Source of the DNA: Candidatus Velthaea sp.
GTDB taxonomy: Bacteria > Vulcanimicrobiota > Vulcanimicrobiia > Vulcanimicrobiales > Vulcanimicrobiaceae
Length of the DNA: 21,130 bases
NCBI GenBank assembly: GCA_050012475.1
Contig: JBEKHC010000089.1
Location: 1 to 21,130 of the forward strand
Direction: 5' to 3'
The position numbers and the translations under genes were made by a program. The notes below the pieces were generated by a model. It did not search any database. It was not told where the DNA came from and saw only the letters and a program-made list of their open reading frames with translations. Shown in pieces: positions 3 to 19,535 of this stretch (positions within the stretch are counted from its first letter, which is position 1; the number at the start of each line of letters is the position of its first letter).

Positions 3-1130
3 TACGCTTCGGTCGTTGCGCTGGCCCGCAGCGATCCGATCGGCTATCTGTTCCGTCAGGTCCATCACTGGAGCGCCGTCGTTTTCGTCGCGGCGATCAT
101 CGTCCACATGGGACGCATCTTCTTCACCGCGGCGTTCCGCAAGCCGCGCGAACTCAATTGGGTCGTCGGCGTCTTGCTGCTCACGCTCGCATCGCTGACG
201 GGTTTCACCGGCTACTCGTTGCCCAATGACGCACTCTCGGGCACGGGCTTGCGGATCGGCACCTCAGTCGCGCTGTCGGTGCCGCTCGTCGGGGCGTGGG
301 CCTCAAATCTGCTCAATGGCGGCGGCTATCCGGGTCCGCTCCTGCTGTCGCATATCTACACGATCCATGTCTATTTTCTGCCGGTCACGATCGGCGCGCT
401 GCTCGGCTTTCATCTTGGAATGCTGGTGCTGCAGAAACACACCCAGTTCGCCGCGGACGAAACGGTCGTCGTCGGGCGGCGCTTCTATCCGGACTACCTG
501 CTGCGCACGGTCGCAGCATTCGGTGCGACCGTCGCCGTCATCGTCGCGCTGAGCTCGATCGTCGAGATCAATCCAATCGAGCGCTACGGCGAGTATCGCG
601 AGTGGATCGCGCCCAATCCCGCTACACCCGACTGGTACGCCGGCTGGCTCGACGGCGCGCTGCGGCTGGGTCCCGCGGTGGAATGGCGAATTTTCGGTCA
701 TCCGATACCCGGCGTGTTCTGGCCAGGCGCGGTGCTGCCGCTGCTCGCCCTCGTGCTCGTCTTGGGCTGGCCGTGGATCGATGCCTGGCTTAGCGGCGAC
801 CGCGCGTATCATGACGTGCTCGTTCCACCGAGCGCTGCGCCGTGGCGCGTCGGCGTCGGAGCGGCCCTGATCGCCGCCGGCGTCATTCTCACGCTGGCCG
901 CGACCGACGACGAACAAGCGCGCACCCTGCACGTCCCAGTCGAAACGCTGGTCTCGGTCTACCGGCTGGCCTTTGCGTTCGGCAGTATCGCGGTTGGCGC
1001 GATCGCTGCGATGTTCGCGCGCCAAGTTCGCGTCCGGCGCAACCTGCATGGTCCCGAGGCTGAGCGCGTGATCGTCGTCAAGCGCAACGAACGCGGCGGC
1101 TTCGACGAAGAGAACGTAACGCACGCATGA
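3..1130 (+). CDS. qcrB: Cytochrome b subunit of cytochrome bcc/bc1 complex (actinobacterial type), 5' end outside window
   Basis: Frame is open from position 3 (YASVVALARSDPIGYLFRQVHHWSAVVFVAAIIVHMGRIFFTAAFRKPRELNW). Heme-ligand His residues in HHW/VHM and IHVYFLP...GFHL, FTGYSLP, and Qo motif PDWY. Confidence 0.95.
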   Translation, partial: YASVVALARSDPIGYLFRQVHHWSAVVFVAAIIVHMGRIFFTAAFRKPRELNWVVGVLLLTLASLTGFTGYSLPNDALSGTGLRIGTSVALSVPLVGAWASNLLNGGGYPGPLLLSHIYTIHVYFLPVTIGALLGFHLGMLVLQKHTQFAADETVVVGRRFYPDYLLRTVAAFGATVAVIVALSSIVEINPIERYGEYREWIAPNPATPDWYAGWLDGALRLGPAVEWRIFGHPIPGVFWPGAVLPLLALVLVLGWPWIDAWLSGDRAYHDVLVPPSAAPWRVGVGAALIAAGVILTLAATDDEQARTLHVPVETLVSVYRLAFAFGSIAVGAIAAMFARQVRVRRNLHGPEAERVIVVKRNERGGFDEENVTHA

Positions 1131-1897
1131 GCGACGACGCGTGCGTGATCGCGCTGCTCGGCGCGACCGCCGCCTTGTATACCGCCGGGATCGTGGCCGC
1201 ACGCCGGCGCGGACGCAGATTTGGCGGGTGGCCGATCGTCGCGTTTGCGGCGGGTCTTGCGCTGCTGGCGATCGCGTTGACCGGACCGGCCGACGACCTC
1301 GCGGATCGCTCCTTGACCTGGCACATGATTCAGCATCTCGCTCTCGTCGGCGTTGCGGCTCCGCTGCTGCTGCTCGGCGCTCCGCTCCGGTTCGCGCTGG
1401 GAGCGTTGCCCGCGGTTCGGGCCGCCGGTCTCGCGCGCGCCCTCAACGCGCTGCCGCTGCGCGCGCTCGTGCATCCGGCAATCGCTTGGCTCCAGTTCGC
1501 GTTCGTCTTGTACGCCGTGCACTTCTCGCGGCTCTATGAAGCGGCGCTCGAACATCCGCCGATCCACGCATTCGAGCATGCGCTGTTTCTCGGCTCCGCG
1601 CTCGTCTTCTGGACGCCGCTGCTCGCGGTCGCCCCCGCACCCCATGCGCCGCCGCATCCGGTCCGATTGCTGGCGCTTTTCGCGGCGCTGCCGATGAGCG
1701 CGTTCTTAGGGTTTGTGTTTTATGTGACCCGTCACGTGCTGTACGCGCACTATGCCCTCCATCCGGGCGCGCTGGCGGATCAAATGCGCGCCGGGGCGGT
1801 GATGTGGATTTGCGGCGGTTTGCCGCTCTTCGCCGCGCTGCTGGGCTGCATCGCCGCCTGGGGCGCACGCGAGCGCCGGCTGGGCTCGACCGGCTGA
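1127..1897 (+). CDS. ctaG: Cytochrome c oxidase assembly protein, Caa3_CtaG family
   Basis: Motifs HMIQHL..VAAPLLLLGAP, HAFEHALFLGSALVFW and DQMRAGAVMW. ATGA overlap with the qcrB stop. Confidence 0.9.
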   Translation: MSDDACVIALLGATAALYTAGIVAARRRGRRFGGWPIVAFAAGLALLAIALTGPADDLADRSLTWHMIQHLALVGVAAPLLLLGAPLRFALGALPAVRAAGLARALNALPLRALVHPAIAWLQFAFVLYAVHFSRLYEAALEHPPIHAFEHALFLGSALVFWTPLLAVAPAPHAPPHPVRLLALFAALPMSAFLGFVFYVTRHVLYAHYALHPGALADQMRAGAVMWICGGLPLFAALLGCIAAWGARERRLGSTG

Positions 1898-1899
1898 CG

Positions 1900-2625
1900 A
1901 TGTTTTTTCCTGTCGTGCTGAGCGCCCTGTTGGTGAGCGCTGCGATCGCACCTACAACCGACGCCGGCAAGCTGGCCTATCAGACGCGTTGCGCCTCGTG
2001 TCACGGTGACGATTTGCGCGGCGGTGCGAACGGTCCGTCGCTGCGAGGCGCCGGCGCGGCCGACTTGGACTTTTGGATGGTCACCGGTCGGATGCCGGCC
2101 GCACTTCCGTGGCTGGAAGTCGGTCATCGCGGTCCCCAGATCGGCGCGCACGAGATCGCCTTGATCGAAGCGTACGTCACGTCGGTCGCTCCGGGCGGGC
2201 CGCCGATCCCGCAGGTCGCGACCGGCGGGAACCTCGCGCACGGGCGCGAGTTGTTCGCGCAGAATTGCGAACACTGCCACGGCGTCGGCGGCGCAGGCGC
2301 GTCGCTGGGCGAAAACGCGTGGGCGCCGGCGTTGCAGGCGGCAAGCATCACGCAAGTAGCCGAAGCAATTCGCGTCGGCCCCGGCAACATGCCCAAGTTC
2401 GCACCGTCGCAGCTCGACGATTCCGCGCTGCGCGACATCGTAACCTACGTATCGTGGCTCGACGCGGACGCTGCTACGGCCGCGTTTCCGCTGCGCAGCA
2501 GCGGCCCCGTTCCCGAAGGATTGTACGGCTGGCTGAGCATCGGTGCGCTGTGCCTCTGCGCTTACGCCTACTCGAAGCGCAGAAAGCCCGGCGCGCCGGC
2601 GCGCGCATCCGAGGAGACCGAATAG
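1900..2625 (+). CDS. qcrC: Di-heme cytochrome c subunit of cytochrome bcc complex
   Basis: ATG at 1900 followed by a signal-like peptide. Two heme motifs CASCH and CEHCH, TGRMP and GPGNMP, and a C-terminal TM preceded by GPVPEGL as in actinobacterial QcrC. Confidence 0.88.
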   Translation: MFFPVVLSALLVSAAIAPTTDAGKLAYQTRCASCHGDDLRGGANGPSLRGAGAADLDFWMVTGRMPAALPWLEVGHRGPQIGAHEIALIEAYVTSVAPGGPPIPQVATGGNLAHGRELFAQNCEHCHGVGGAGASLGENAWAPALQAASITQVAEAIRVGPGNMPKFAPSQLDDSALRDIVTYVSWLDADAATAAFPLRSSGPVPEGLYGWLSIGALCLCAYAYSKRRKPGAPARASEETE

Positions 2626-3086: not shown

Positions 3087-3575
3087 ATGAAAATCACCCA
3101 TATCGCCCTCGGACTGGCACTCGCCGTGTCGACTCCGCTGGCAGCCTCAGCGACGACGACGACGACGCAAAATTTGACAATTACTACCGACGTTTCTAAC
3201 TCGTGTCTGTTCAGCCCGATCGCTGGCATTCCGGAAACCTACGATTGGCAGCACGGCGCCTACACCGCGAACTTCGCTGCCGCGCTCAGCGTGGAGTGCA
3301 ACAGCGGCACGGCGTACACGGTGACGGCAGACCACGGCCAACATGCCAACGTTGACCAGAATGAATTGTCGGACGGCGCAACGCATACGCTGGCCTACTC
3401 CCTGCAGCTTGTCGACTCGAGCTCCGCGTCGTTTGACCCGGCGGGCGGCAGTGCACCGTCCGAGACCGCAAACGGTAGCGGGCAGTCGTTCGCGGTCACG
3501 TTGACCATCGCTGCCAACCAAATGGTGCCGGCGGGCTCGTACCAGGATACGGTCGGCTTCACGGTGACCTACTGA
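3087..3575 (+). CDS. Spore coat protein U (SCPU)/Csu-type pilin, probable major subunit
   Basis: AAGGAG RBS, signal peptide, N-terminal donor strand TTTQNLTITTDVSNSC, second Cys in VECNSGTAY, LAYSL, and C-terminal NQMVPAGSYQDTVGFTVTY. Confidence 0.9.
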   Translation: MKITHIALGLALAVSTPLAASATTTTTQNLTITTDVSNSCLFSPIAGIPETYDWQHGAYTANFAAALSVECNSGTAYTVTADHGQHANVDQNELSDGATHTLAYSLQLVDSSSASFDPAGGSAPSETANGSGQSFAVTLTIAANQMVPAGSYQDTVGFTVTY

Positions 3576-3623: not shown

Positions 3624-3862
3624 CGCTCTTCAAGGCGGATTTCACATTCGACCGGCCGACAGTTCTACCGACGTCGCGCTTGGACTAGTCGGCTGGGCGG
3701 ACACATCAACTCGACTCGGTTGCGATCTCTTATCGCGGCTGTGTTCCCATTGAACTATTGAGCTCGGCCGACCGAAGCTAAGACTGAGGGACCAACGCCG
3801 GTCACTCAGACTTTGCAGGATAGCCAGTCCATGGATGGTTGCGTATCTGCCGCCACACTCCG

Positions 3863-6196
3863 ATGACGGAGCGTAACGTCACCGCGCGCCTCGTGGCCGT
3901 TTATGCTGCGGCCATCTTCGGAGGCGTCCCCGGCCTGGTACTCGCCGACACGGATAAGATACCGACGCCGACGGCTAACGGCAGGATTGATCGGACGATC
4001 GCCGACTGGGTTGTCAACGAGAACGAAAAAGGCGATACCTTCGTCATTCTCAAGGGCAGTGAGCTCTGCGTCCCATCCGCGACGATGGCCGCGTTTGGAG
4101 CTCTGGGGCTGCCTGCCGGCAATCATTTCCGCTTCCGCGGAGATGATTACGTGTCGCTCGACTCGCTGCGGCCGGATCTCACCTATACGTGGGACCCGAA
4201 TCTGCACCTGATCACGATCACCATCGCAGCATCAGATTTTCTTCCGACGACGATCGATTTGAGAGAACTGAAGCCGAGCGGAATCGATTATCGGCATTCC
4301 GCCAGCGGTTTCGTGAATTACGATCTCCACGAGTCCGTCGACGGTTCGCAGCGCGCGACGTCCCTTGCTCTCGACTCTTCGCTGGCTATGGGTCCGGGTG
4401 ATCTCGCGTTGGCCGGCAACCTCGCCGACACCGGCTTTTCGACCTCACGTTTTTCGTACACGGTCGAGAACCTGGCAGGTTTGACGCAGTTCCAGCTTGG
4501 CCAGATCGATCAGAATGCGCGCACCGCCGTGCCGGGAACGCTTCTGGGCATTTCGTTCGGACGGCGGTTCGCGCTCGATCCCTACTTGAACACGGCCCCG
4601 ATCCCGTCGCTCGCCACCGCGGTCAACAGTCCATCGACCGTGTACGTCTACGTCAACGGCCGGCTGATAAAGACCCAGAACGTGGCGCCCGGCATCCTCG
4701 ATTTGAGCAACATCCCGATGCCCGACGGTACGAACGACGCAACGGTCGTCATCGCCGGTCCCGACGGGCGCCGTACCCTCAACGTCCCATTCTACGGCAC
4801 GTCCGCCAATCTCGCCAAAGGCTTGACCGACTTCCAATTCGAGGCCGCACTGGACCCGACGGCGCACGTCCCAGTCGCCTCTGCCTTTTATCGCCGCGGC
4901 TTGAGCGACGCGTTCACCCAGGATGTCGCGCTCATCGGTACGCCGGGATACGATCGCGCCGGGTCGGCGCTCGACCTTCGAACGCACCTCGGCACGTTTC
5001 ACGCGGCCTACGATCAAAGCCGCGAGGCCGGCGGTACCGGCGGGCGCGCCGACCTTCGCTACAACTTTTTGGATCGCAACTTCTTCGTTGGAACTGAAGT
5101 TACGCGCAGCGCCGCCGGGTTCAGCACGGGCGGATGGACCGACGGGTCCGGACTGACTCCGGCCCCGATCGCACCGTTGAGCGGATCGCCGGCCCCGCAG
5201 GCTCAACTCGACGAATCGCTCTATTTCGGAACCACGATGGGGCACGTCGCGCCTTATTTGAATTGGGAGCGTGCTGCCGACGCTTCACAGAACGGCTCGT
5301 CGTCGACGCTGGGTGCGGCAATCCGTCTTTCTAGCGGTGCGTTGACGCTTGCCGCGACGCGTCAAGAACATCCGCGCAGCACGTCGTTTTCCTTGTCGTT
5401 CAGCACGAATGTCGGACGCGTGAACGCTACGGAGAGCTATGACTCGAGCACACATGCTTCGTCCTTGACGGCGGAAACGCAACGTCCCAATGGGACCGGG
5501 TCGACCACGCTGACCGCCGATTTCCCGTCGCTTGACCGTCTGCAGCTCGATTCGAGCGCAAATTGGAGCAAGGGCGGGTATGCGCTCACCCTCTCGCGTG
5601 ATAACGGTTCGCTCAGCGGCGATTTCGATTATCAGGGCGCGGTCGGCTTGGTGGGTCACCGCATCTTCGAGTCGCAACGGATTGACGCCGGCTTCGCTCT
5701 CGTTCGCGTTCCTGGCCTGGCCGGGGTGAACGTCAACGTCGAGGGCCGGCCCGCCGGCCGCACCGATGGGCACGGCGATCTGGTCGTTCCCGACCTCATT
5801 ACCGGACTCGCGAACACCATAAAGATCGACGACGATGATCTCCCCCTCGATCTCCATTTCGAGCAGACCCAGCAGATCGTCTCGCCCCTTGGGCGCTCGG
5901 GTATGGTCATCGAATTTCCCCACACGCGAGTCAACACGTATCGAGGCCGAGTGAATTTCGTCGTCGGCGGACGGCAGGTCACGCCGATCGAGGGCACGGC
6001 CACCTATCGCGCGCACGGTCGGGACGTTAGCGTCGACATCTCGGAGAGCGGCGAGCTTTATCTCAACGACGTCGAGTCGGGCACGTATCCGCTTCACATT
6101 GAAGCTGACAACGGCGTTTGCGACGCGACGATCACGCTCCCGAAAACAGTTGCGGCCTTTGTAAAATTCGGGCCGGTGACCTGTACCCCTCACTGA
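3863..6196 (+). CDS. Fimbrial outer-membrane usher (CsuD-like)
   Basis: About 777 aa with a signal peptide, SGFVNYD, plug-region PSTVYVYVNG...PG, GRTDGHGDLVVPDL...NTIKIDDDDLPLD, and a C-terminal Cys pair. Start uncertain (TTG 3839 or ATG 3863). Confidence 0.92.
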   Translation: MTERNVTARLVAVYAAAIFGGVPGLVLADTDKIPTPTANGRIDRTIADWVVNENEKGDTFVILKGSELCVPSATMAAFGALGLPAGNHFRFRGDDYVSLDSLRPDLTYTWDPNLHLITITIAASDFLPTTIDLRELKPSGIDYRHSASGFVNYDLHESVDGSQRATSLALDSSLAMGPGDLALAGNLADTGFSTSRFSYTVENLAGLTQFQLGQIDQNARTAVPGTLLGISFGRRFALDPYLNTAPIPSLATAVNSPSTVYVYVNGRLIKTQNVAPGILDLSNIPMPDGTNDATVVIAGPDGRRTLNVPFYGTSANLAKGLTDFQFEAALDPTAHVPVASAFYRRGLSDAFTQDVALIGTPGYDRAGSALDLRTHLGTFHAAYDQSREAGGTGGRADLRYNFLDRNFFVGTEVTRSAAGFSTGGWTDGSGLTPAPIAPLSGSPAPQAQLDESLYFGTTMGHVAPYLNWERAADASQNGSSSTLGAAIRLSSGALTLAATRQEHPRSTSFSLSFSTNVGRVNATESYDSSTHASSLTAETQRPNGTGSTTLTADFPSLDRLQLDSSANWSKGGYALTLSRDNGSLSGDFDYQGAVGLVGHRIFESQRIDAGFALVRVPGLAGVNVNVEGRPAGRTDGHGDLVVPDLITGLANTIKIDDDDLPLDLHFEQTQQIVSPLGRSGMVIEFPHTRVNTYRGRVNFVVGGRQVTPIEGTATYRAHGRDVSVDISESGELYLNDVESGTYPLHIEADNGVCDATITLPKTVAAFVKFGPVTCTPH

Positions 6197-6245: not shown

Positions 6246-6554
6246 TTATCGGCTTGCTGCAGACGCGGTCGGAGCCGGTGCTTGCGAGTCCGTAGCGACC
6301 GAATCGATGCCCGGAATGTACGACTCTGCGCCGAAGAGGATACCCCCGGCCGGCGGAACGATCGGCCGTTGCCCGTCGCCGCAGCGAGCGACGACCTTGT
6401 CGCCAACCTGATAGTCTTGGCACGTCACCGGCGTCGCCACGACCGTCACGGAGATGCTCAGCGAGCGATGAGCCGTTGCCGCTGAGGCCGCGGCCGGCGC
6501 AACGATCACGGCGAGGGAAGCTGCGATGGCGATTTTTTTCATCAGGTTCGTCAT
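6246..6554 (-). CDS. Small secreted protein with pilin-like N-terminal donor strand and a Cys pair
   Basis: GAGGA RBS before ATG 6554. Signal peptide MTNLMKKIAIAASLAVIVAPAAASA, then ATAHRSLSISVTVVAT, C-x12-C and a low-complexity tail. 102 aa. Confidence 0.75.
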   Translation of the reverse strand: MTNLMKKIAIAASLAVIVAPAAASAATAHRSLSISVTVVATPVTCQDYQVGDKVVARCGDGQRPIVPPAGGILFGAESYIPGIDSVATDSQAPAPTASAASR

Positions 6555-6779
6555 GGCAATTTCCTCTTGGTGCAGAACACCGGCAGCGAACACAACAGGG
6601 AACCGAGGTCCGTCTATAACGGGCCGTCGTACGAGCCGCGCTCGGTGGTGATTTGGTCTTGAAATCTCGGGACGCAGTTCTCTTTACACGTTTATAGCAG
6701 AGCCGCTCGAAGCGCACACCCCGGAAACCATGGGTTCTTTACAACTCAATCACGCCGTCGAAGACACGATACCTATAGC

Positions 6780-7610
6780 ATGAGACCCAAAATGGTATCG
6801 CGGGCAGCCTCGTGGGTTAGCATGAGCCTGGTCTTGGCGACGCTTCTGTCCTTGCGCACGGCCGCCGCAACCGCGCAGCTAAACGCAGACCTCACGTCGC
6901 CAAGCGATGCGGCGGGCGGCCCGTTCGACGTTAGTCCGATCGCCGTCGTGATCGCCAAAGGCCAGACCAGCAGCTCAGTCGTCGTCAGGAGCAGTGGGGG
7001 AGAAAGCCATTTTACCGTCGGCGGATACCGTTGGACACAGGACGAGAGCGGCAAGATGTCGTTCGAGCCCGCCGACGAGCTCATCTTCTTTCCGCAAACG
7101 TTTACGCTGAGCGGCGGCAAGACCGAGCGAATTCGAATCGGCGCACAAGGCGTCGACCCATCCGTCGAGCACACGTACCGCATCATCGTGTACCAGTTAC
7201 CTCCCAAGATCGATCCCGGACAAGGAAAGCGCCCGAGTATCGGCATGGGCTTTAGCTTGCGGGTCAGCGTCCCCATCTTCGTCGAGCCGTCGAACCCGAA
7301 GCAGGCAGTTGATGTCGCGCTCGCGGTGGTGCGCGGCGACGACCTCGGCGTCGACGTTGCCGCAACGGGAAACATTCACGTTCCGCCGTCGGTCGTTCAC
7401 GTCGTCGCAACCGACGTTAACGGAAAGAGCGTCGTTGATACGAAGTCCAACGTCTGGTATACCCTCGCAGGCACGAAAACGCACGTCGACGTGCCGATTT
7501 TGCACGCGCAATGCAGCCAGATCGCGCGGGTGAAGCTTGACCTCCAAGATATGCTGGGGCGCCCGCTCACGACCCGTGACGTTACCGACCCGCAGAAAAA
7601 CTGCAAGTAG
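6780..7610 (+). CDS. Periplasmic pilus chaperone (PapD/CsuC-like)
   Basis: VSPIAVVI, WTQDESG, LIFFPQTFTLSGGKTERIRIG, EHTYRIIVYQLP, LRVSVPIFVEP, ATGNIH and WYTLAG. Start may be 6792 or 6822. Confidence 0.9.
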   Translation: MRPKMVSRAASWVSMSLVLATLLSLRTAAATAQLNADLTSPSDAAGGPFDVSPIAVVIAKGQTSSSVVVRSSGGESHFTVGGYRWTQDESGKMSFEPADELIFFPQTFTLSGGKTERIRIGAQGVDPSVEHTYRIIVYQLPPKIDPGQGKRPSIGMGFSLRVSVPIFVEPSNPKQAVDVALAVVRGDDLGVDVAATGNIHVPPSVVHVVATDVNGKSVVDTKSNVWYTLAGTKTHVDVPILHAQCSQIARVKLDLQDMLGRPLTTRDVTDPQKNCK

Positions 7611-7616
7611 CGTCCC

Positions 7617-8051
7617 ATGCGTGTGCTGGGTGCGGTGTTTGCCGTCCTGATCGCAAGCTTACCCGCCTTTGCCGGCGCTTCTTGTACCCTCAGTGCGCGT
7701 TCCGGAACGATCGCCTACGACTCGCTCAATCCTGCCGGCGTGAGGGTTTCGGGCCTCATCGAGATCGACTGCAGCCCAAGCTCGCTCCCGGGAACCGCGA
7801 GAATCCTCTTCGACGGCGGCGGCTCTGGCAATTCGCTCGGACGCAGGATGCGCGGGGGAGCCAGCGCGCTGGCCTATCGTATTTACTTGCCGGGCGGGGG
7901 TGCGTCAAGCGGCGCAGGCGAGACGCAGACGGTGTCGACGGCGTTGACCTCGCAGCGAACGCTCGTACCGTTCATCATAAGCATCTTTCCGCACCAGCCG
8001 GTACCCGCGGGTGCGTACATGGACGAGCTGAGCATAACGTTCAGCTATTAG
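7617..8051 (+). CDS. SCPU/Csu-type pilin lacking an N-terminal donor strand (probable tip subunit)
   Basis: Signal peptide followed directly by ASCT, then IDC, GGSGNSLGRRMRGGASALAYRIY and C-terminal HQPVPAGAYMDELSITFSY. Confidence 0.88.
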   Translation: MRVLGAVFAVLIASLPAFAGASCTLSARSGTIAYDSLNPAGVRVSGLIEIDCSPSSLPGTARILFDGGGSGNSLGRRMRGGASALAYRIYLPGGGASSGAGETQTVSTALTSQRTLVPFIISIFPHQPVPAGAYMDELSITFSY

Positions 8052-8326: not shown

Positions 8327-8845
8327 CTAGAGAAAGCCCAGGACGCGAGAGATGACCTGCGAGCGGTTTTGAGCGTCGGTTTTCGCAGCGATGTTCCTCA
8401 CATGTTCTTCTACGGTCGCCGGGGCGATGTGAAGGCGCGAGGCGATGTCGGTATTCGGAGCGCCTTGCATCAGGAGCTGCAGCACGTCGGCTTGGCGGCT
8501 GGTCATGCCGTGGCGCAGGACTGCCTCGCCGACGGGATCGCGCGTCCGAAGCTTTTCGATGATGACGCACGTGAGTTCGGCGTCCGGCGCATACGGCTTG
8601 ATGATGCGCACGACCGTGTCACCGTCCATCGCCATGACGCTGTCCGCTACGTGCTTGACCTTCCCCATGAGGTTGCGCACGATCTGCTCGATAGCCGGTG
8701 GCAAGCTCTCGGACTGCGAGATCGTCGGAGAACTGCAGGCGAGGACGACGCGCAAAGCCTTGTCAACCACGTAGAACGTCGGGACCGCACGCCTCTTCAG
8801 GACCTCGGGCGCGGCGTTCGCTCGCGAAGGCGGATTACGATCCAT
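8327..8845 (-). CDS. LuxR-family HTH transcriptional regulator with a non-REC N-terminal region
   Basis: C-terminal MTSRQADVLQLLMQGAPNTDIASRLHIAPATVEEHVRNIAAKTDAQNRSQVI. Probable ATG at 8845. Confidence 0.88.
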   Translation of the reverse strand: MDRNPPSRANAAPEVLKRRAVPTFYVVDKALRVVLACSSPTISQSESLPPAIEQIVRNLMGKVKHVADSVMAMDGDTVVRIIKPYAPDAELTCVIIEKLRTRDPVGEAVLRHGMTSRQADVLQLLMQGAPNTDIASRLHIAPATVEEHVRNIAAKTDAQNRSQVISRVLGFL

Positions 8846-9030
8846 ATTGTCGTTATCGGCAACGCGAAAGCAATCCAAGATACGCCGGGTCGCCGCCGGC
8901 TTGCACGCTTCGTTCTTCGCAAAGTCCGATCGGGGAGCCGATCCTGCTGCCTCGATCGTGCCTCCGAGATGCCGCAGAGCGAGTCCTCGAGCCTGATGCG
9001 CGCTCTGCCGTCGGGCGTACGCGTTTCAAT

Positions 9031-9076
9031 AGCGCCGGGCAAGAACGTTCCGCAGCGCCGGGCAAGAACGTACCGC
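9031..9076. repeat. 23-bp tandem duplication with one mismatch
   Basis: AGCGCCGGGCAAGAACGTTCCGC (9031-9053) followed by AGCGCCGGGCAAGAACGTACCGC (9054-9076). Confidence 0.95.
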
Positions 9077-9988: not shown

Positions 9989-11035
9989 TCAGCTCGGGCT
10001 TCCCTCGGCGGCGCCAAAATCTGCCGGCTGCGCCCGGTCCCCGTTCGCGACCGAGAACGTCGTGCGCCGCTTGCCGATCACGATGTCTTCTTTGCGCAGG
10101 ACGTGTTTGGACACATCGACGTTGACGCGCTCTTCCCAGAGCGGGATGCGCACGGTCTCCCCGGCTTCGAGCCGGCGGCCCTCGATGATGACCGTTCCGC
10201 CTTCGCCGGCATATTCGATGACGAGTTCTTCGCGCGTGACGGGAACCTGAATCGTCCGGGTTTCACGAACGATCTCTTTGCGCACACGCGCCTCACCGGC
10301 CGCCTCGACCGGCGTTCGCGCAAACCGGTCCGGCACCGGCACGTGCAGTTGCGAGGCGCGCGGTTCACCGGCCGGCACGGCGCCGCCGCGCGCCGCCGAC
10401 ACGGTGCCGCGCAGCGGCGCGGCGCGCAGAACGCTGGGAGCGAAACGGCGCGCCGTCAGGACCAAACAGCCCAAGCAGCAGAGCCCGGTGAACACGGCGA
10501 CGCCGAAGCGCCACTGCGCGGTCGATGGCATTTGCGCGTTTTGCAGGCCGGTTGCCCGCACGAAGTCGTCGTCCGCCGACGCCGGCGGACGGATATGCAC
10601 GGCAGGCGGCCGATTCGTATACGCGACGGTCGCCCCGGCTGCTTCGGCGACGGTGCGCAACGGAACGTAGACGCGACCGTCATGCCGCATCGGGGCCACG
10701 TCCAGGTCGACGGACGCGTGTCCCACAACTGCTCGCCGCCGATCGAGGATGAAGGCCGCGATCACGGCCCCTTCCTTGCGCACGACCACGAATTTCGGCC
10801 ACGAGTATTGGACGCTCGCGCCGATGGCCTCGAAGACTCCGCGCACGGGGACGAGCAAATGCCGGCGTTCGACGACTGCGGGCGTGCGGATTCTTTTGTG
10901 GCCGACGTAGATCGCCGGCGTCGCCTCGACGGCTCGGCCGTCACGGCGGCGCGCATCGGCCGCCTGCGGGGCGATCAAAATGCCGAGGCAAAGGCTGATC
11001 CCAAGGCAACGTATCAGCGTTTGGAAGATGTGCAC
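9989..11035 (-). CDS. Copper-amine-oxidase N-terminal (stalk) domain + TM + YsnF/AvaK (DUF2382) domain protein
   Basis: GAGGGAG RBS and GTG 11035, signal peptide, LLVPVRGVFEAIGA and GRVYVPLRTVAEAAGA, a TM, then GEARVRKEIVRETRTIQVPVTREELVIE...VRIPLWEERVNV. Confidence 0.82.
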   Translation of the reverse strand: MHIFQTLIRCLGISLCLGILIAPQAADARRRDGRAVEATPAIYVGHKRIRTPAVVERRHLLVPVRGVFEAIGASVQYSWPKFVVVRKEGAVIAAFILDRRRAVVGHASVDLDVAPMRHDGRVYVPLRTVAEAAGATVAYTNRPPAVHIRPPASADDDFVRATGLQNAQMPSTAQWRFGVAVFTGLCCLGCLVLTARRFAPSVLRAAPLRGTVSAARGGAVPAGEPRASQLHVPVPDRFARTPVEAAGEARVRKEIVRETRTIQVPVTREELVIEYAGEGGTVIIEGRRLEAGETVRIPLWEERVNVDVSKHVLRKEDIVIGKRRTTFSVANGDRAQPADFGAAEGSPS

Positions 11036-11172
11036 CGACTCCCTCAACTCCTGACCGATCAATGCGGGAGGTGTGTCCGGCGGTCAAATGCGCTGCATTT
11101 CCCGCGCTATTACGTGCGATATTCACCACGCCCAGAACCGGACCCCGCCGTCACCGGACCGAAGACTGCCGA

Positions 11173-11874
11173 ATGCAAACGACTGCCGAACTCAAGCGCG
11201 CCGCGGGCGAAGCCGCCGTCGACCGTTACGTGCGTGACGGCATGTGCGTGGGCCTCGGAACCGGCTCGACGGCTTACTACGCAATTTTGCGGGTCGGCGA
11301 AATGGTCGCTGCCGGTGCGTCGATCGTCGCCGTCGCCTCATCGCTGGGGACCGAAGAGCTGTGTCGCCAAGCCGGCATTCCACTCGTCGATTTGCTTTTA
11401 CGGCCGATTGCCGTCGCGATCGACGGGGCTGATGAAGTCGCGCCCGACTTCGCTTTGACCAAGGGCGGCGGCGGCGCGCTGTTTCGCGAGAAATGCATCG
11501 CCCTTGCAGCCGAGCGGTTCATCGTCATCGTCGACGAAAGCAAGCTCGTGACGAAATTGGGGGCCTTTCCGACGCCGGTCGAAGTCCTCCCGTTCGCGCT
11601 GAGCTGGGTCGAGCGCGAGATCGCGAGCGCGTTCCCGCACGCCGCGATCCGGCGCCGCGGGGCGAGCCCGTCGTTCGTCACCGACAACGGCAACGCGATT
11701 CTCGATTGCGCGTTCGGCCTCATCGACGACCCCGCCGAACTCGAGGCCGAGTTACGCGCGATTCACGGTGTCGTCGATGCCGGATTGTTTACCAACCTCA
11801 CCGATGTGGTGCTGGTCGCGCAGCCCGGCGGGGTACGCGATCTGCGGCGCGGCGAGCAGCCCGCCGGCTTGTAG
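11173..11874 (+). CDS. rpiA: Ribose-5-phosphate isomerase A
   Basis: Motifs GLGTGST, DGADEV, KGGGGALFREK, TDNGN and IHGVVDAGLF. Confidence 0.97.
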   Translation: MQTTAELKRAAGEAAVDRYVRDGMCVGLGTGSTAYYAILRVGEMVAAGASIVAVASSLGTEELCRQAGIPLVDLLLRPIAVAIDGADEVAPDFALTKGGGGALFREKCIALAAERFIVIVDESKLVTKLGAFPTPVEVLPFALSWVEREIASAFPHAAIRRRGASPSFVTDNGNAILDCAFGLIDDPAELEAELRAIHGVVDAGLFTNLTDVVLVAQPGGVRDLRRGEQPAGL

Positions 11875-12570
11875 CCGGTTGCGACGCCCGCGGCCGGTGC
11901 GCAGCAAGGCGACGATGCGCCGCACGCACTCGACGGCAAACATCAGCACGATCGCGCCGACGGCCCCGAAAACCCACAACGGCGTGGTCTCTTCGGTCGC
12001 CGCGACGGGCGCCTCGGGCGGGGGCGTGACGACGACGAGCTCGTCATTGGGCACCCGAATGTCGACTAGGCGCGGGCGGGCGGAATAGGTGACGGTCGCG
12101 CCGGCGATCTCGGCGATCGCGCGCAGGGGCACGTAAACCCGGCCCCCGCGCCGGACAGGCGCGGCGCTGAGCTCGCGCGGCTGATTGTAGACGACGGCGT
12201 GCTGACGGTCGACGACCAGTCCCGCCACGACGGTGCCGTTGCGACGCACAACGACGATGCGCGGCGCCGTGTACTCGACGTCGGCGTGCAGCGCCTCGAA
12301 CACGCCGCGTACGGGGACCAGCAGATGTCCGTGCCGGAGCACCGCCGGCTGACGAACGAGTTGGCCGCCGACGAAAATCGGCGGTGGAACGTCGGCCCGC
12401 TTGACTTTTTGGCGAACGGTAATCGGGCCGGCGGCTTGATGCAGGCGGATGTGGTGCCGCGGGTCATGGTGCGCCGCGCACGCGGGCTGCAGGCCCGCCA
12501 GCGTGCAGGCTGTCAGCGCAACTCCAATGCCGGCACCGACGATCCTTGAATGCACCCGCGACCTCCGCAC
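11752..12570 (-). CDS. Copper-amine-oxidase N-terminal (stalk) domain protein with C-terminal TM
   Basis: Signal peptide, HLLVPVRGVFEALHA and GRVYVPLRAIAEIAGA, TM WVFGAVGAIVLMFAV. Paralog of 9989-11035. Confidence 0.8.
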   Translation of the reverse strand: MRRSRVHSRIVGAGIGVALTACTLAGLQPACAAHHDPRHHIRLHQAAGPITVRQKVKRADVPPPIFVGGQLVRQPAVLRHGHLLVPVRGVFEALHADVEYTAPRIVVVRRNGTVVAGLVVDRQHAVVYNQPRELSAAPVRRGGRVYVPLRAIAEIAGATVTYSARPRLVDIRVPNDELVVVTPPPEAPVAATEETTPLWVFGAVGAIVLMFAVECVRRIVALLRTGRGRRNRLQAGGLLAAPQIAYPAGLRDQHHIGEVGKQSGIDDTVNRA

Positions 12571-13212: not shown

Positions 13213-13300
13213 GTAGAGGGCTGCGCTACGCGCAGCCCGTCGCGTTTCGGCTTCGCCGAAGCCGCCTGTCGCAGTTTATCCGACAAGTCGGACAAACTGC
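13213..13300. repeat. Cluster of three palindromes, REP-like
   Basis: GTAGA-GGGCTGCGC-TAC-GCGCAGCCC (13213-13238), CGGCTTC-GCC-GAAGCCG (13248-13264) and GCAGTTTATCCGAC-AA-GTCGGACAAACTGC (13271-13300). Confidence 0.6.
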
Positions 13301-14481
13301 TAGGCGACCTCGAACAAGCCCGCTGCGCCCATCCCGCCGCCGATGCACATCGTGACGACCACGTATTTTTCGTTGCGCCGTTTGCCCTCGATGAGCGCGT
13401 GCATGACCATGCGCGCCCCGCTCACGCCGTAGGGATGTCCGATCGAGATCGCGCCGCCGTCGACGTTGAGTTTCTCCTGCGGGATGCCCAGCGCGTCGCG
13501 GCAGTACAGCGTCTGCACCGCGAATGCTTCGTTGAGCTCCCACAGCCCCACGTCATCGATACGCAATCCGTGGCGCTTGAGCAGCTCGGGAACCGCGAGG
13601 GCCGGCCCGATGCCCATCTCGCCGGGATCGCAGCCGACGACGACCATCCCGCGATAGATCCCCAGCGGCTGCAGATTCCGCTGTTCCGCCAGCTTCGAAT
13701 CCATCACGACGACCGCCGCTGCGCCGTCCGAAAGCTGCGAGCTGTTGCCAGCCGTGATCGAAGAGTCTTTGCCCAGCACACCCTTGAGCGCGGCCAACCC
13801 TTCGAGCGTCGTATCGACGCGATTGCCTTCGTCTTTGGCGAGCACGACGTGCTCCTCGCGCACGCTCCCGCTGCCTTTGTCCTCGACATACTTCCAACTC
13901 GGCAGCGGCACGATCTCGGCATCGAATCGGCCCGCGCTTTGCGCCGCGGCCGTGCGCTGCTGGCTCTCGAGCGCGTACTCGTCTTGCGCTTCGCGCGCGA
14001 TCTTGTAGTGTTTGGCCAGGTTGTCGGCGGTTTGCAGCATCGGCATGAAGATGTCGGGTTCGTTGCGCAACAGCCACTCTTCGGTAAAGCCCTTGACGTG
14101 CACGTCGTTCTGCACCATTGAGACCGACTCGCAGCCACCCGCGACGATGATCTTCGCACCGTCGACGAGCACGCGTCCAGCCGCCGCGGCGATTGCCTGC
14201 AGCCCCGAGGCGCAGTAACGATTGATCGTCTGCCCGGGAACGCTGCGCGGCAATCCGGCGCGCAAGGCTGCGGTGCGCCCGAGATTGTGACCGGTCGCGC
14301 CTTCGGGCAACCCCGTGCCGATGATGACGTCCTCGATTTCGGCGGGATCGACTCCGGCGCGTGCGACCGCGTGCTGCACGACGTGGCCGGCCATCGTTGC
14401 GCCGTGGGTTTGATTGAACGCACCGCGAAACGCTCGCCCGATCGGCGTGCGCGCGGCGGACACGATGACGGCTTCAGACAT
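13300..14481 (-). CDS. Acetyl-CoA C-acyltransferase (thiolase)
   Basis: Starts [15 protein letters not shown]. Motifs [18 protein letters not shown] and MCIGGGMG. Confidence 0.96.
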
Positions 14482-16615
14482 GTGCGATCTCCCGCCGGTA
14501 CTTGGCAATCGTTCCGCCTTGCTGCGCGATCCGTTCGAGCAGCGGCGATACCGGCCAGCCAAAGTCTTTGATGCGTGCGACGACCCGGGCGACGCCGATT
14601 TCGTCGGCGTACCACATGGGTCCGCCGTGATGTGGCGGAAACCCGTAGCCGTAAATGTAGACGATGTCTTCGTCGCCCGGCCGCAGCGCAATCCCGTTCT
14701 CGAGCAGTCCGGCCCCGACGTTGACGAGCGCGTAGGCCAGCCGCTCGAGGATCTCCGCGTCGCTGACGTCCCGCGGCGCGATGCCGGCCTTGGCGGCTTC
14801 TTCCGCCGCCAGCGCGAGCAGCGCCGGATCGGGAACGGGGTCGCGCTTGTTGGGCCCGTCGTATTTGTAGAAGCCGACGCCGGTTTTCTGACCCCAACGT
14901 TTGGTTTCGTACATCCGATCGATGATGTTGGTGCGCTTCTCGCCCAGCGCCGCAGCGTGACCTTGCTGAATATGCCAGAACACGTCGACGCCGGAAAGAT
15001 CGAACGTCGCGAACGGTCCCATCGCAAATCCGAACTGCTCCTTCATCACGCGGTCGATCCGTTCGGGCGCGACGCCTTCTTCGAGCAGATACATCGCCTC
15101 GCGCGAATAGTCGAAGAACATGCGGTTACCGATGAAACCGAAGGCGTTGGCCGAGACGACGGCTACCTTGCGCAGGGTTTTACCGAGTTTGATCGCGGTG
15201 GTCAGGGTTTGCGGCGAGGTGTCCGCTCCGCGGACGATCTCCAGCAGCCGCATGATGTTGGCGGGCGCGAAGAAATGCAGTCCGACGAACTTATCCCGCC
15301 GCCCGGTTACGCTCGCCATCTCGTCGATGTCCAGCGTCGAGGTATTCGAGGCCAAGATAGCTTGCGGTTTGCACGCTGCGTCCAGTTTGCGGAACACGTC
15401 CTTCTTGACGTCCATGTTTTCGAACACGGCCTCGATGACGATGTCGGCCTCGCCAAGCTCGTCGTAGGTGCTTGCCCACGAGACGAGCTGGCCGAGCTTC
15501 CAGGCTTGCTCCTGGCTAATCCGGCCGCGCTTCACTTGCTGCGCGAACATGCCGAACACCATTTGCTTCGAGCGTTCGACTTGTTCGTCGATCGGCTCGA
15601 CGAGCACCACCCGAATCCCGGCATTGGCGAACGTGATCGCGATGCCGGTCCCCATCGTGCCGGCGCCGACGACGCCGGCTGTTTTGATGTCGAGCGCTTC
15701 GGCCGGCGGCAGATTCGGAATCTTCCCCAGTTGTCGCTCGGCGAAGAACAAATGCCGCAACGCGGCCGACGGTTTCGAGACCACCAATTCCTCGAACAGC
15801 CGATATTCGCGCGCCAGACCGTGGGCGAAATCGAGTTCGAGCGCCGCTTCGACGGCATCGACGAGCTTGTGTGCGGCATATCCGCCGTTGCTCTCGGGCG
15901 GGACCATTTTGTGCGCTTGCGCGACGACGAAGGGCGTCGCGAGCAGGGTCATGCCGTGCACGCCCAGTTCGGTTTTGCGCTCCGAAACACGGCGTTTGGG
16001 CGCCGTCGCGATGACGCGTTCGATTAGCGCGACCGCCGCGTCGACGACGTTGCCGCGAGCGATCTCGTCCAGAATGCCCTTTTTGAGCGCCTCCTCAGCC
16101 ACGACGTTGTCGCCTTTGAGCATCAACGCCAGGGCATCTTGAGCGCCGATGAGGCGCGGCAGCCGCTGCGTTCCGCCGCCGCCCGGCAGCAGTCCCAGCC
16201 GAATTTCGGGGAACCCGACTTTCGTTTTCGGCGAGCCGATACGGTAGTCGCACGCCAACGCCAGCTCCAGTCCGCCGCCCAGCGCGTTGCCGTCGATCGC
16301 CGCAACGAAGGTCTTCGCGCTGCGCTCGAGCGCTGCCGTGACGTCGCGCAGCGTTTTCGTGTCGGACGTCGGAACGGTCGCGAAGTCGTTGATGTCGGCG
16401 CCGAAGCTGAACAACCCGCCCGCGCCGGTAAAGATGACGGCGCGGACCGCTGGGTCGGCATCGGCGGCCTGGACCGCCGTGAGGAGTTGCTCCGACAAAG
16501 CGAACGAGATGGCGTTGGCGGGAGGATTGTCCAGCGTGATGACGCGGATGCCGCCCGGACGCTCGGTGACGGTGATGAGCGCCGCGACGTCGGTTTGACC
16601 GGAAGGATTCATCAT
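14474..16615 (-). CDS. Bifunctional enoyl-CoA hydratase / 3-hydroxyacyl-CoA dehydrogenase
   Basis: ECH motifs [15 protein letters not shown] and [22 protein letters not shown] motifs GAGTMG, EAVFE, SNTS and HFFAP. Start at 16618, 16615 or 16612. Confidence 0.96.
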
Positions 16616-18429
16616 CACGCGACCACCAGGATCTGACGGTCGAGATCAAACTGTTCTTCGGTCAGCGCCATCACCGAGCCCGAACCGTGCACGATCTCAT
16701 GGTGCAGCGCCAACGCCGTGTTCAAAACGTGATCGGCGTAAAAGCGTGCCGTACCAAGCTTCGCAGCGTAGAACGGATCGCTCGTTCCGGCCGCGATCTT
16801 GGCCGCGCTGATCTGCGCCGCCCGGGCCATCTGCCAGCCGCCGGCGACGACGCCCCACAGCCGTAAGTACGGAACGCTGCAGGCGAAGGCGCGGTTGAGA
16901 TCGCTCAGCGCGTTCATGCCGATGCATTGCGAGGCCTCGGTGAGCAGTTCGATGCCGCGGCCCAGCTGCTGTTTGATCGCGCTGACGTCCGCGTTCGCTT
17001 CGTCGAGCGCCTGCACGGTGTTCGTGATTTGCTTGATGACGGCGCTCGCGGTCGTACCCATGTCGCGAATGAGTTTACGGCCGACGAGATCGAGCGCCTG
17101 AATGCCGGTCGTGCCCTCGTAGATCGAGACGATCTTGACATCGCGATACTGTTGAGCGACGCCCGTCTCTTCGATGTAGCCCATGCCGCCGAAGACTTGG
17201 ACCGCCGTCGAGCACAGCTCGGTCGCGGTCTCGCTGCACCAGCCTTTGACCACCGGGATCATCAACTCGATGAAGGCTTTGTGCTCTTTGCGCACGCCAG
17301 CATCGGGATGACTGCTCGCGAAGTCGAGCGACGCCGCGCAAACGTACGCTAAGGCGCGCATCGCCTCGATTTGCGCCTTCATCGACATGAGCATGCGGCG
17401 CACGTCGGGATGTTTGATGATCGGTGCGGCGCTGCGCGAGGTACCGGCGACTTCGCGCGATTGCAGCCGCTCCTTGGCATATGCCAAGGCGCTTTGATAC
17501 GCGCGGTCGGCGATCGCCAGACCCTGCACGCCGGTGCTGAAGCGGGCGGCATTCATCATGATGAACATGTATTCCAGGCCGCGATTCGGTTCGCCCACGA
17601 GGTATCCGATTGCGCCGTCCTTTTCGCCGTAGCTGAGCGTGCAGGTAGGGTTGCCGTTGATCCCCAGTTTGTGCTCGATTCCCGCGCAGAACACATCGTT
17701 GCGTTCGCCCAGGCTGCCGTCGGCGTTGACGAGCACCTTGGGGACGATGAAGAGCGAGATGCCCTTGGTGCCTTCGGGAGCGTTGGGGAGGCGGGCCAGA
17801 ACCAGATGGATGATGTTCGGTGCCAGGTCGTGCTCGCCGAACGTAATGAAAATCTTTTGGCCGCTGATGCGATAGCGATCGCCGTCGGGAATCGCCTTGG
17901 TCCGCACGGCCGCAAGATCCGAACCGGCTTGCGGCTCGGTCAGACACATCGTTCCGCACCATTCGCCGCTCACGAGTTTGGGAATGTAGGTGCGCTTCTG
18001 CTCCGGTGAGCCGCAGAGTTCGATGGCTTCGATTGCGCCTTGATTGAGCAGCGGGCCGTTCGCGAAACCGACGTTGGCCGCGTTCCACATCTCGAGCGTC
18101 GGGCCGAGCATCAGGTGCGGCAGACCCTGTCCGCCGTGGTCGGTCGAGACCGGCAGCCCGATCCATCCAGCTTGAGCAAATTGCGCGTAGGCCGCTTTGA
18201 AGCCGGCCGGCGTCGTCACCGCGCCGGCGTTCCAGCGGCAGCCTTCGACGTCGCCGGTGCGGTTGATGGGATCGAGCACTTCGGTTGCGAACGTCGACGC
18301 TTCGACGAGGATCGCGTCGAGGACGTCGGGCGTGTCCTCGAAGCCCGGAAGTTTGGCGATGTCATCGATGCCCGCAAGTTCGCGCAGGACGAACTGCATT
18401 TCGCGAAGCGGGGCTCGGTAAGTGCTCAT
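16615..18429 (-). CDS. Long-type acyl-CoA dehydrogenase (about 600 aa)
   Basis: Motifs GTMCLTEPQAGSDL, GQKIFITFGEHD, EHKLGI, FGGMGYIEE and IYEGTTGIQA. Confidence 0.96.
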   Translation of the reverse strand: MSTYRAPLREMQFVLRELAGIDDIAKLPGFEDTPDVLDAILVEASTFATEVLDPINRTGDVEGCRWNAGAVTTPAGFKAAYAQFAQAGWIGLPVSTDHGGQGLPHLMLGPTLEMWNAANVGFANGPLLNQGAIEAIELCGSPEQKRTYIPKLVSGEWCGTMCLTEPQAGSDLAAVRTKAIPDGDRYRISGQKIFITFGEHDLAPNIIHLVLARLPNAPEGTKGISLFIVPKVLVNADGSLGERNDVFCAGIEHKLGINGNPTCTLSYGEKDGAIGYLVGEPNRGLEYMFIMMNAARFSTGVQGLAIADRAYQSALAYAKERLQSREVAGTSRSAAPIIKHPDVRRMLMSMKAQIEAMRALAYVCAASLDFASSHPDAGVRKEHKAFIELMIPVVKGWCSETATELCSTAVQVFGGMGYIEETGVAQQYRDVKIVSIYEGTTGIQALDLVGRKLIRDMGTTASAVIKQITNTVQALDEANADVSAIKQQLGRGIELLTEASQCIGMNALSDLNRAFACSVPYLRLWGVVAGGWQMARAAQISAAKIAAGTSDPFYAAKLGTARFYADHVLNTALALHHEIVHGSGSVMALTEEQFDLDRQILVVA

Positions 18430-18438
18430 GAGTTCTCC

Positions 18439-18813
18439 TCAATAGAGTTCGGCGCGCAGGCGCTCGACGGATGCGGCCAGGGCATCGAGATACGGCAGCA
18501 TGTTGGTTTTGATTCGAGTTAGGCGTTCACGGCCGGAAGCGGTGACGGCGTAAATGCGGCGGGCGCGCTTGGTCGGATGATCCCATGCGCCGATGATGAA
18601 GCCGCGCTCCTCGAGCCGGCGCAGCAGCGGATAGATCGTATTCGTGTTGACCGCGAGATAGCCGTGGCAGAGTTCGGCGATGCGCTGCATGAGGCCGAAA
18701 CCGTGTTCGGGACCGGCGTCGAGCAGATGCAGGATGAGAACCGGAAAGACGGTCTTCGATTTGATCGGACCGCGGAACAGATCGTCGGTGGCTGCGGTCA
18801 CGGTCATCGGCAT
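18439..18813 (-). CDS. PadR-family transcriptional regulator
   Basis: ILHLLDAGPEHGFGLM, NTIYPLLRRLEERGFI and RRIYAVTASGR. First gene of the beta-oxidation operon. Confidence 0.9.
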   Translation of the reverse strand: MPMTVTAATDDLFRGPIKSKTVFPVLILHLLDAGPEHGFGLMQRIAELCHGYLAVNTNTIYPLLRRLEERGFIIGAWDHPTKRARRIYAVTASGRERLTRIKTNMLPYLDALAASVERLRAELY

Positions 18814-18927
18814 CGGTGGGGCAGGTTGATCCTTTTACTATTAGGCGAAACCCTCTTCCGGGTTTTCAGCGGACCTGCGGGAGCAGGCTTCACGTGGCCG
18901 AGAATCAGCTTCGCCTTCACGATCTGG

Positions 18928-18956
18928 TTGACATATCTCGATATATCGGATAATAT
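18928..18956 (+). promoter_or_regulatory. Sigma70 promoter with embedded palindromic operator
   Basis: TTGACA (18928-33), N17, TAATAT (18951-56). Perfect palindrome CGATATATCG at 18939-18948. ATG lies 6 nt downstream with no RBS. Confidence 0.75.
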
Positions 18957-18962
18957 CGGCTC

Positions 18963-19535
18963 ATGAGATTTGAACCTTTTTCACAGCCCCAAGGGGAGGG
19001 CGACCACCCCAACTTTTTCTGGTCGCACGATCTGCGCAGGCACTTCATGGGCGGACGGCGCGGCCGCCGTCACGGGCACGGCGGCTTCGCGCAAAGCGAA
19101 CGCGGCAGCGTGAAATACGATGTGCTCGCAATTTTGAGCGACGGTCCGCGCCACGGATACGAAATCATGATGGCGATCGAAGAACGCCGCGGTTTCCGGC
19201 CGAGCCCCGGCTCGATTTATCCCGCACTGCAAATGCTCGACGACGGTGACTTCGTGAGCAGCACCGAAGTCGACGGCAAACGGGTGTACTCGATTACCGA
19301 TAAAGGCCGTGAATTGCTGCAAACCCGCCGCGATTCGCCGCGCGGTGCCGAAGATGCCGGCGGCCCGACCGCAGGCGCCGAACTCATGCTGCGCGGAATG
19401 CGCACGCTGCACGGTCTCCGCGACGCGGTCAAACAAATCGCGCGCAGCGGCGACGTCGAACTCATCGGCCGCGGCGTCGAGATCATCGACCGTGCGCGCC
19501 GCGAACTTTACGCGCTGCTGGCCCAAGAACAATAA
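18963..19535 (+). CDS. PadR-family transcriptional regulator with His/Gly/Arg-rich N-terminus
   Basis: ERGSVKYDVLAILSDGPRHGYEIM, PSPGSIYPALQMLDD, KRVYSITDKG and RARRELYALL. Confidence 0.93.
   Translation: MRFEPFSQPQGEGDHPNFFWSHDLRRHFMGGRRGRRHGHGGFAQSERGSVKYDVLAILSDGPRHGYEIMMAIEERRGFRPSPGSIYPALQMLDDGDFVSSTEVDGKRVYSITDKGRELLQTRRDSPRGAEDAGGPTAGAELMLRGMRTLHGLRDAVKQIARSGDVELIGRGVEIIDRARRELYALLAQEQ

Follow-up and report, generated by a model that had tools for sequence, protein, structure and literature searches.

The window analysed here, a stretch of 21,130 nucleotides that makes up one entire contig (G000:C89), carries the genes of an archaic (SCPU) chaperone-usher pilus in the order pilin 1, usher, a mini-protein gene on the opposite strand, chaperone and pilin 2, followed on the minus strand by a gene for a LuxR-type regulator (Table 1). 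The sequencing runs holding a large share of the stretch came from peat and soil. Pilins 1 and 2 are the sole SCPU genes of the whole genome; the latter, with its first Cys three residues past the likely signal cleavage site, is probably a tip-type pilin. In the closest operon, that of genome G017 (its chaperone is 51% identical), the pilins come first, followed by chaperone, usher and tip pilin, and a mini gene is absent, so the order in the window is rearranged. The G017 locus also holds three near-tandem major pilins and a fourth upstream copy, apparently frameshifted (L041:9416-12105). The remaining parts of the window (108-2625, 9989-12570 and 13300-19535), labelled by eye, include what we take to be genes for cytochrome b, oxidase assembly and cytochrome c, two copper-amine-oxidase-N-like proteins flanking ribose-5-phosphate isomerase, beta-oxidation genes and a divergent pair of PadR-like regulators.

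Table 1. Positions of the features discussed (window numbering, unless a locus handle precedes the position).
Feature	Position	Strand	Remarks
Pilin 1	3087..3575	+	SCPU major-type pilin with own donor strand; modelled acceptor; Pfam PF05229, E 3.6e-13
Usher	3839..6196	+	Pfam PF00577, E 8.8e-12; stop 6196
Mini-protein gene	6246..6554	-	ORF, 102 aa; 10 clusters; dN/dS 0.33-0.39 (mature part)
Pro/Gly motif (residues 62-82) and low-complexity tail	6249..6371	-	pLDDT <50 over last 22 residues
C45-x12-C58 beta-hairpin	6381..6422	-	most conserved stretch in the family; highest model confidence
Donor-like strand, residues 26-41	6432..6479	-	only these residues touch pilin 1 in the model; matrix score 11.3
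Sec-type signal peptide (predicted), residues 1-25	6480..6554	-	read by eye from the sequence
Ribosome-binding site GAGGA of the mini gene	6562..6566	-	sequence
Conserved 13-base upstream motif	6613..6625	-	before 3/3 family genes with DNA
Upstream block common to the window and G238	6691..6741	-	ends in TGnTATAA, an extended -10-like box
Periplasmic chaperone	6780..7610	+	divergent from the mini gene; Pfam PF00345 (PapD_N), E 2.9e-8; start 6780
Pilin 2	7617..8051	+	SCPU pilin without donor strand; Pfam PF05229, E 4.6e-11
LuxR/GerE-type regulator	8327..8878	-	Pfam PF00196, E 5.4e-15
L046 mini-pilin	L046:592-888	-	last in operon
L050 mini-pilin	L050:8016-8294	-	operon strand; directly before chaperone; C-terminal score 11.4
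L051 mini-pilin	L051:8627-8935	-	operon strand; directly before chaperone; C-terminal score 12.7
L119 mini-pilin	L119:12402-12728	+	last in operon

An earlier note on this DNA had described a reverse-strand gene for a protein of 102 aa between usher and chaperone, with its own ribosome-binding site and a product consisting of a C-x12-C element and a low-complexity tail in place of an SCPU body. This description was borne out. The protein ends in an Ala/Pro tail and lacks the LxY and GxYxD motifs; Pfam gave no match to the small ORF, nor did a search for SCPU domains in 11 family rows, and a PDB sequence search with the mini-protein gave none either. Models of the monomer (mean pLDDT 59.8 and 45.5) contained little beyond one hairpin, and a wide fold search with this low-confidence model reached a Z of 2.8 at best. 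Searching the ESM Atlas produced leads under 0.9 only, to hypothetical proteins of 94-111 aa. By both the models and the sequence, the 77 mature residues form neither an acceptor groove nor an incomplete Ig fold.

The family to which the protein belongs was gathered from two relatives, then three credible proteins among six matches, nine proteins found with a profile among 7768 candidates, and one from genome G238. It comprises ten clusters at 90% identity, that of the window included, which are about 35-70% identical to each other and have the frame, the two Cys and roughly the length in common. P42, V43, C45, D47, C58 and G75 are invariant, the two Cys in 11/11 rows. Two proteins (P0007 and P0009) were dropped as chance matches driven by repeats, and chance-level matches in genomes were likewise discarded (G011:C19, E 6.5e-4; G238:C22, E 0.0035; and nine further weak ones). 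A scan of genome contigs gave two confirmed matches, for which no locus is given, and none of 19 pattern matches in viral contigs was confirmed. The genome of the window holds no paralogue. A C-terminal motif, NAxLCxxCSF[HY], is found in five of the ten clusters and is lacking from the window copy. The leaders of the seven complete homologues are all shorter than that of the window copy, hydrophobic, of the form Met/Leu-Leu-His and free of Lys and Arg; the classical signal peptide of the window copy results from about ten extra N-terminal residues. Since all seven have this atypical short leader, export of the homologues is uncertain.

Over the mature part, the dN/dS ratio of the three family genes with DNA is 0.33-0.39. 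In the hairpin, dN is 0.14-0.19 against a dS of 0.62-1.29; in the strand, dN is 0.18-0.37, a figure drawn from nine codons, and one of the three pairs has a dN/dS near 1. The GC content by codon position (0.65/0.58/0.74) is like that of the neighbouring genes. These values indicate that the mini gene is a real gene under purifying selection. They also show that the best-conserved part is the C45-C58 hairpin and not the strand. A strain variant, V66A at window position 6358, occurs in one RNA contig, one DNA contig and proteins P0015 and P0016.

The non-coding DNA upstream of the mini gene aligns with that of G238 with a score of 68, above all of 1000 shuffles; the alignment with L061 is not significant (95 of 1000 shuffles). 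The 13-base motif in this region occurs once in the 5.36 Mb genome, and the block ending in the TGnTATAA box may act as a promoter. A sigma-70 scan gave no match above chance, the 50 bases separating the stop codons of mini gene and usher contain no predicted terminator, and Rfam, searched at E up to 1, matched nothing in the window, L065 or L061. Regulation by an invertible switch was considered and rejected: no inverted repeat surrounds the mini gene or the intergenic region, and four sequencing runs contained no joints. One metatranscriptome RNA contig lies wholly within the ORF (6252-6502, depth 2.1), these contigs carrying no strand and having no silent stretch as control; there were four contigs in all (6/30 bins), and we do not take them as evidence of expression. 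Elsewhere in the window, two 23-base tandem copies, 96% alike, lie at 9031-9076, about 150 bases upstream of the LuxR gene; by eye they are not evident upstream of the G238 counterpart.

The resemblance of the mature N-terminus to a pilin donor strand was measured with a matrix built from 39 donor-type pilins of the phylum, six mis-picked rows having been removed from 45, against 170 secreted proteins of the same genome selected with a crude signal-peptide filter. Residues 31-38 score 11.3, a value reached by one of the 170 background proteins; for pilins left out singly, the median is 15.1 and the 10th percentile 10.0. With the uncleaned first matrix, the N-terminal beta-strands of three of the 170 proteins had scored equally. 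Two homologues reach 10.5-11.3, six lie between -0.9 and 4.6, and a further one is truncated, so that the strand stands above nearly all of the background in just three of ten clusters; of the remainder, five are matched by 11-57 of the 170 background proteins, one is matched by 7 and one has no strand. The spacing typical of pilins, hydrophobic-x3-Cys, ends the strand in seven of the nine other clusters, whereas the window copy and two relatives carry an insertion there, with three residues more than pilins have ahead of the first Cys. Profile comparison with the 39 pilins (hhalign) detected no homology (probability 0.2). The claimed donor-strand resemblance thus stands for the window copy and is strong in a minority of its family. 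The second-Cys motif of the window copy scores 1.3, a value reached by 57 of 354 background windows; in five of ten clusters this motif is in the top 5%. The C-terminus scores -10.9, which 61 of the 170 background proteins match; homologues score -6 to -16.7 and every pilin at least 8.5. That the CxxC motif might be a retained strand F of a pilin was tried and rejected (scores of -6 to -8.5, with 24-40 of the 170 background proteins as high). Two major pilins of this lineage (L060:7071-7568 and L065:12123-12629) themselves lack the otherwise invariant Cys pair; in the L060 protein, judged by eye in this one case, a Pro ends the N-terminal strand at the same place as the invariant Pro of the mini-protein family.

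Insertion of the strand into the acceptor groove of a pilin, one of the checks named in the earlier note, was modelled with pilin 1 deprived of its own donor strand and residues 26-89 of the mini-protein. The median score was 0.68 (runs of 0.68, 0.43 and 0.74), and the best of three controls scored 0.01, these controls being unrelated proteins as opposed to other beta-strand N-termini. The score mark is reached by 116 of 157 solved complexes and by 2 of 215 mismatched pairs, figures that are approximate owing to our use of our own alignments. Contacts agreed between runs to at least 90%, and the pLDDT of the partner was at least 61. Residues 26-41 alone make up the partner's side of the predicted interface, running antiparallel to the last strand of pilin 1 (strand F) with the pairings L32-V156, I34-D154, V36-Y152 and V38-G150, and flanked by the first strands of the pilin. 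In the model, this geometry is that of donor-strand complementation in the empty groove of pilin 1. Since similar complexes of CsuA/B and CupE1 have been solved, the pass speaks for compatibility, as distinct from binding by this particular copy, and may reflect likeness to the solved CsuA/B and CupE complexes.

Genomic context could be read for three of the ten clusters, and in all three the mini gene adjoins an archaic chaperone-usher operon and lies on the strand opposite to the pilus genes (window, L061 and G238). Linkage to Csu-type loci, also named beforehand as a check, was therefore found wherever context was available. At L061 the mini gene runs towards the end of an usher-tip pilin operon, the two being convergent. 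In G238 it and a pilin-chaperone-usher-tip operon are arranged head to head, and the roughly 2.5 kb between them include what we take to be a broken transposase (frames at L065:9900-11250); tail to tail with the mini gene lies a LuxR gene sharing 76% identity with that of the window. The pilus lineages so partnered are two in number and 24-31% identical. Among 401 genomes of the phylum, a chaperone was found in 70, the mini family in two and a close LuxR orthologue in the same two (9-15 candidates were scored per genome, and the chaperone tally includes the unpublished genomes G347 and G059). The 62 genome regions read, some of them cut by contig ends, correspond to 63 of the 76 chaperone matches, plus L061; the 13 left out comprise two unpublished genomes, one second match and the ten weakest. 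The family HMM matched at three of 63 pilus loci and found no mini gene at the other 60. L060, whose DNA is 76% identical to the L061 operon, has none. Judging by this distribution and by the absence from L060, the mini gene is accessory. Between G238 and the window, the LuxR proteins are 76% identical, the pilus proteins 24-27%, and 21 other proteins 61% at the median. No LuxR orthologue was found in the 7 kb of L061 before the mini gene, on a contig that ends inside the usher. G238 encodes five more LuxR paralogues on C39, C51 and C46 (L068-L072), 43-48% identical to that of the window; four of them form divergent pairs, 5-7 kb apart around other genes, and no mini gene or pilus gene was seen near the five in the stretches read.

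Scanning 63 loci for a signal, a donor strand and a Cys gave 108 matches: 91 full pilins, five long variants and 12 short ones. Of the short matches, six turned out to be the second Cys of a full pilin and one to be noise; the remaining five are mini-proteins 92-108 aa long, namely the family member at L061 and four others encoded within pilus operons (L046, L050, L051 and L119; Table 1). These five amount to 5.9 per Mb at the loci, compared with 0.37 per Mb elsewhere in the genome of the window; the scan missed the mini genes of the window and of G238. The C-terminal scores of the L050 and L051 proteins exceed those of all 170 background proteins, and both keep a pilin-like end. The L051 protein is clearly a pilin with an internal deletion (hhalign probability 91, E 1.1e-6). 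All four were seen in a single lineage each; a search of 348 genomes for relatives of the L050 protein returned only itself, three weak matches having been read and rejected. In the ESM Atlas, the L050 protein resembles unnamed clusters of hypothetical proteins of 88-93 aa, mostly from Pseudomonadota, at 0.93-0.94, a lead by which this class of mini-pilins may be widespread. With four unrelated mini-pilins, one of them an internally deleted pilin, shortened donors are a recurring product of pilus loci. A pilin origin of the window's family is plausible in view of these four. They share with it the size, the signal, the donor strand, a Cys-Cys loop of 11-18 residues, a low-complexity linker and the association with archaic loci, but lie on the operon strand, and L050 and L051 retain the pilin C-terminus. 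The mini family HMM matched none of the four, and the one pair compared gave a probability of 1.5.

The mini-protein can be set against several known systems. PapH and FimI are whole pilin domains that bind the chaperone and both terminate and anchor the pilus; they donate a strand to the last rod subunit and accept none, and are predicted to limit pilus length (PMC10673952). Like them, the mini-protein would donate (in the model) without being able to accept, there being no groove without an Ig body; unlike PapH and FimI, which are operon-encoded, chaperone-bound, usher-delivered and anchoring, it has no pilin domain or chaperone-binding end and is transcribed in the opposite direction. With the SCPU pilins (PF05229), such as CsuA/B of Acinetobacter and CupE1 of Pseudomonas, it has in common a signal, an alternating N-terminal strand, a Cys pair and, in the model, complementation antiparallel to the last strand. 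In contrast to them, it lacks strands after the second Cys, GxYxD, a C-terminal strand and any Pfam or profile match, and its Cys are spaced by 12 residues as against 27-37 in the 39 donor-type pilins. Synthetic donor-strand peptides act in vitro as free strands that complete a pilin and displace its chaperone. These are laboratory reagents, of which the mini-protein would be a genome-encoded counterpart. We found no report of such a mini-protein in a literature search that mostly reached papers outside subscription. According to the CupE paper, it "remains to be determined" whether archaic pili have an analogue of PapH (PMC10104325), and 'terminat' and 'anchor' do not occur in the main text of the Csu rod paper (PMC9452303).

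We propose that the mini-protein is a free donor-strand decoy or release factor, which ejects the chaperone, leads pilins into dead ends and stops or sheds pili; we give this proposal an even chance of being right. Sequence comparison shows a maintained gene that points away from the direction of the pilus genes and has conserved DNA of its own upstream. Its product would be exported and its leader cut, and the periplasmic disulphide system would close the C45-C58 hairpin. Residues 26-41 would then replace the G1 strand of the chaperone in the pilin groove, as a true next subunit does. Having neither a groove nor the C-terminal strand by which chaperones hold subunits, the mini-protein would allow no further addition, and the chaperone would be freed. 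A pilin caught in the periplasm would end in a complex no longer recognised by the usher; a pilus caught at its base would stop growing and lose its chaperone plug, and for this reason would more likely be shed than anchored. The role of the hairpin would be to stabilise or shield the strand, or to make contact with pilin, chaperone or usher. Expressed separately from the pilus genes, probably through the linked LuxR, the protein would form a post-translational brake on piliation. For homologues with the short leader, scavenging would be confined to the inner membrane if the leader stays uncut. CsuC-CsuA/B complexes polymerise without the usher, the chaperone strand being exposed to attack (PMC4654587); a free strand would hence need no usher to act, which favours a diffusing decoy over an anchor. 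Also in favour of the decoy are the complex model, the strand score of the window copy, the linkage to operons of two lineages at all three loci with context, the pilin spacing in seven of the nine other clusters and the recurrence of mini-pilins within operons. Weighing against it are the likeness of the model to solved complexes, the lack of profile homology to pilins, the low strand scores of most clusters, the greater conservation of the hairpin than of the strand, the atypical leaders of the homologues, the absence of the gene from 60 of 63 pilus loci and the availability of context for three clusters of ten.

The conservation pattern would also suit a secreted disulphide-hairpin peptide of a LuxR cassette, serving as signal, ligand or surface factor and co-regulated with the pilus genes, in which the strand is ordinary or vestigial and binds no pilin in the cell. 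Mini gene and one LuxR orthologue co-occur exactly (two of 401 genomes each), this LuxR is 76% identical between two genomes whose pilus proteins share 24-27%, conservation peaks in the hairpin and, in five of ten clusters, extends to a C-terminal CxxC that does not score like a pilin, and homology to pilin profiles went undetected. Yet the cassette adjoins pilus operons of two different lineages, the strand lies exactly at the mature N-terminus before a Cys at pilin spacing and is placed in the pilin groove by the complex model, and the 7 kb before the L061 mini gene, on a contig ending inside the usher, hold no LuxR orthologue; we regard such a peptide as a rather unlikely explanation. A further idea is that of a decaying pilin fragment, a spurious ORF or a gene that matters only as an antisense unit separating usher from chaperone gene. 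For it speak the rarity of the gene, the missing Pfam and PDB matches, the absence from the window copy of the C-terminal motif that half the family has, and the lack of a predicted terminator in the 50 bases between its stop and that of the usher. Ten clusters that keep frame, both Cys and length, a dN/dS of 0.33-0.39, the failure of an admittedly weak search to find a longer or fused homologue among 8000 scored candidates, and the absence of pilin remnants in any frame past the stop speak against it, and we hold decay, a spurious ORF or a purely antisense role to be very improbable. A frameshifted pilin was rejected on the same ground, the other frames past the mini gene stop containing no pilin motif.

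Two further explanations keep the strand as the active part. One, after the manner of PapH and FimI, is a terminator and anchor delivered by the usher, added last and holding the pilus in the pore. In its favour, the protein by sequence and model donates and cannot accept, the window gene stands directly before that of the chaperone, the L050 and L051 mini-pilins, likewise encoded just before a chaperone gene, on the operon strand, retain the C-terminus of a pilin, and archaic pili have no known terminator (PMC10104325). Against it, PapH and FimI are folded, chaperone-bound pilin domains (PMC10673952), and an archaic chaperone needs the C-terminal strand and carboxylate of the subunit in addition to strand complementation (PMC4654587); the C-terminus of the mini-protein scores -10.9, compared with at least 8.5 for every pilin, and a 14-residue hairpin with a disordered tail, less bulky than a pilin domain, is not expected to block the pore. 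The anchor is accordingly improbable, and the analogy with PapH fails in this respect. L050 and L051, having kept the pilin C-terminus just before the chaperone gene, are better candidates for an archaic terminator. Alternatively, the protein could be a constructive base cap: by completing the last pilin it would let short, stable pilin oligomers go into the matrix, displaying hairpin and tail as a binding handle. The modelled insertion is the same, and a second binding role is suggested by the selection acting on hairpin and Pro/Gly motif, but no partner of the hairpin was identified (fold search at most Z 2.8 on a low-confidence model) and the gene faces against the operon, with which it is not co-transcribed; we consider a base cap quite improbable. 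Among the roles first suggested, namely termination, release, anchoring and scavenging, release and scavenging fit better than anchoring. Overall the observation was confirmed and its interpretation partly supported; the conservation of the hairpin, the LuxR regulator that travels with the gene and the in-operon mini-pilins elsewhere in the phylum had been overlooked.

The mini-protein thus represents an undescribed small family, probably employing known donor-strand chemistry in a new form. More tentatively, and with our judgement leaning against it, archaic loci may repeatedly have spawned body-less mini-pilins that control assembly, some being in-operon forms that have kept the end for chaperone binding (L050 and L051, candidates for the missing archaic terminator) and others a free, separately regulated, LuxR-partnered 'anti-pilin' that attacks complexes of chaperone and pilin and sheds pili on command. 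On this view the genome would encode, in the 'anti-pilin', a natural inhibitor of donor-strand exchange, and with it a switch to release a kind of pilus that cannot retract. For the arrest of archaic chaperone-usher pilus growth, the mini-protein and the four in-operon mini-pilins are small, concrete candidates. If the decoy proposal is true, bacteria make inhibitors of their own strand exchange, which would add a new control of biofilm attachment and dispersal and provide a natural model for anti-adhesion peptides.
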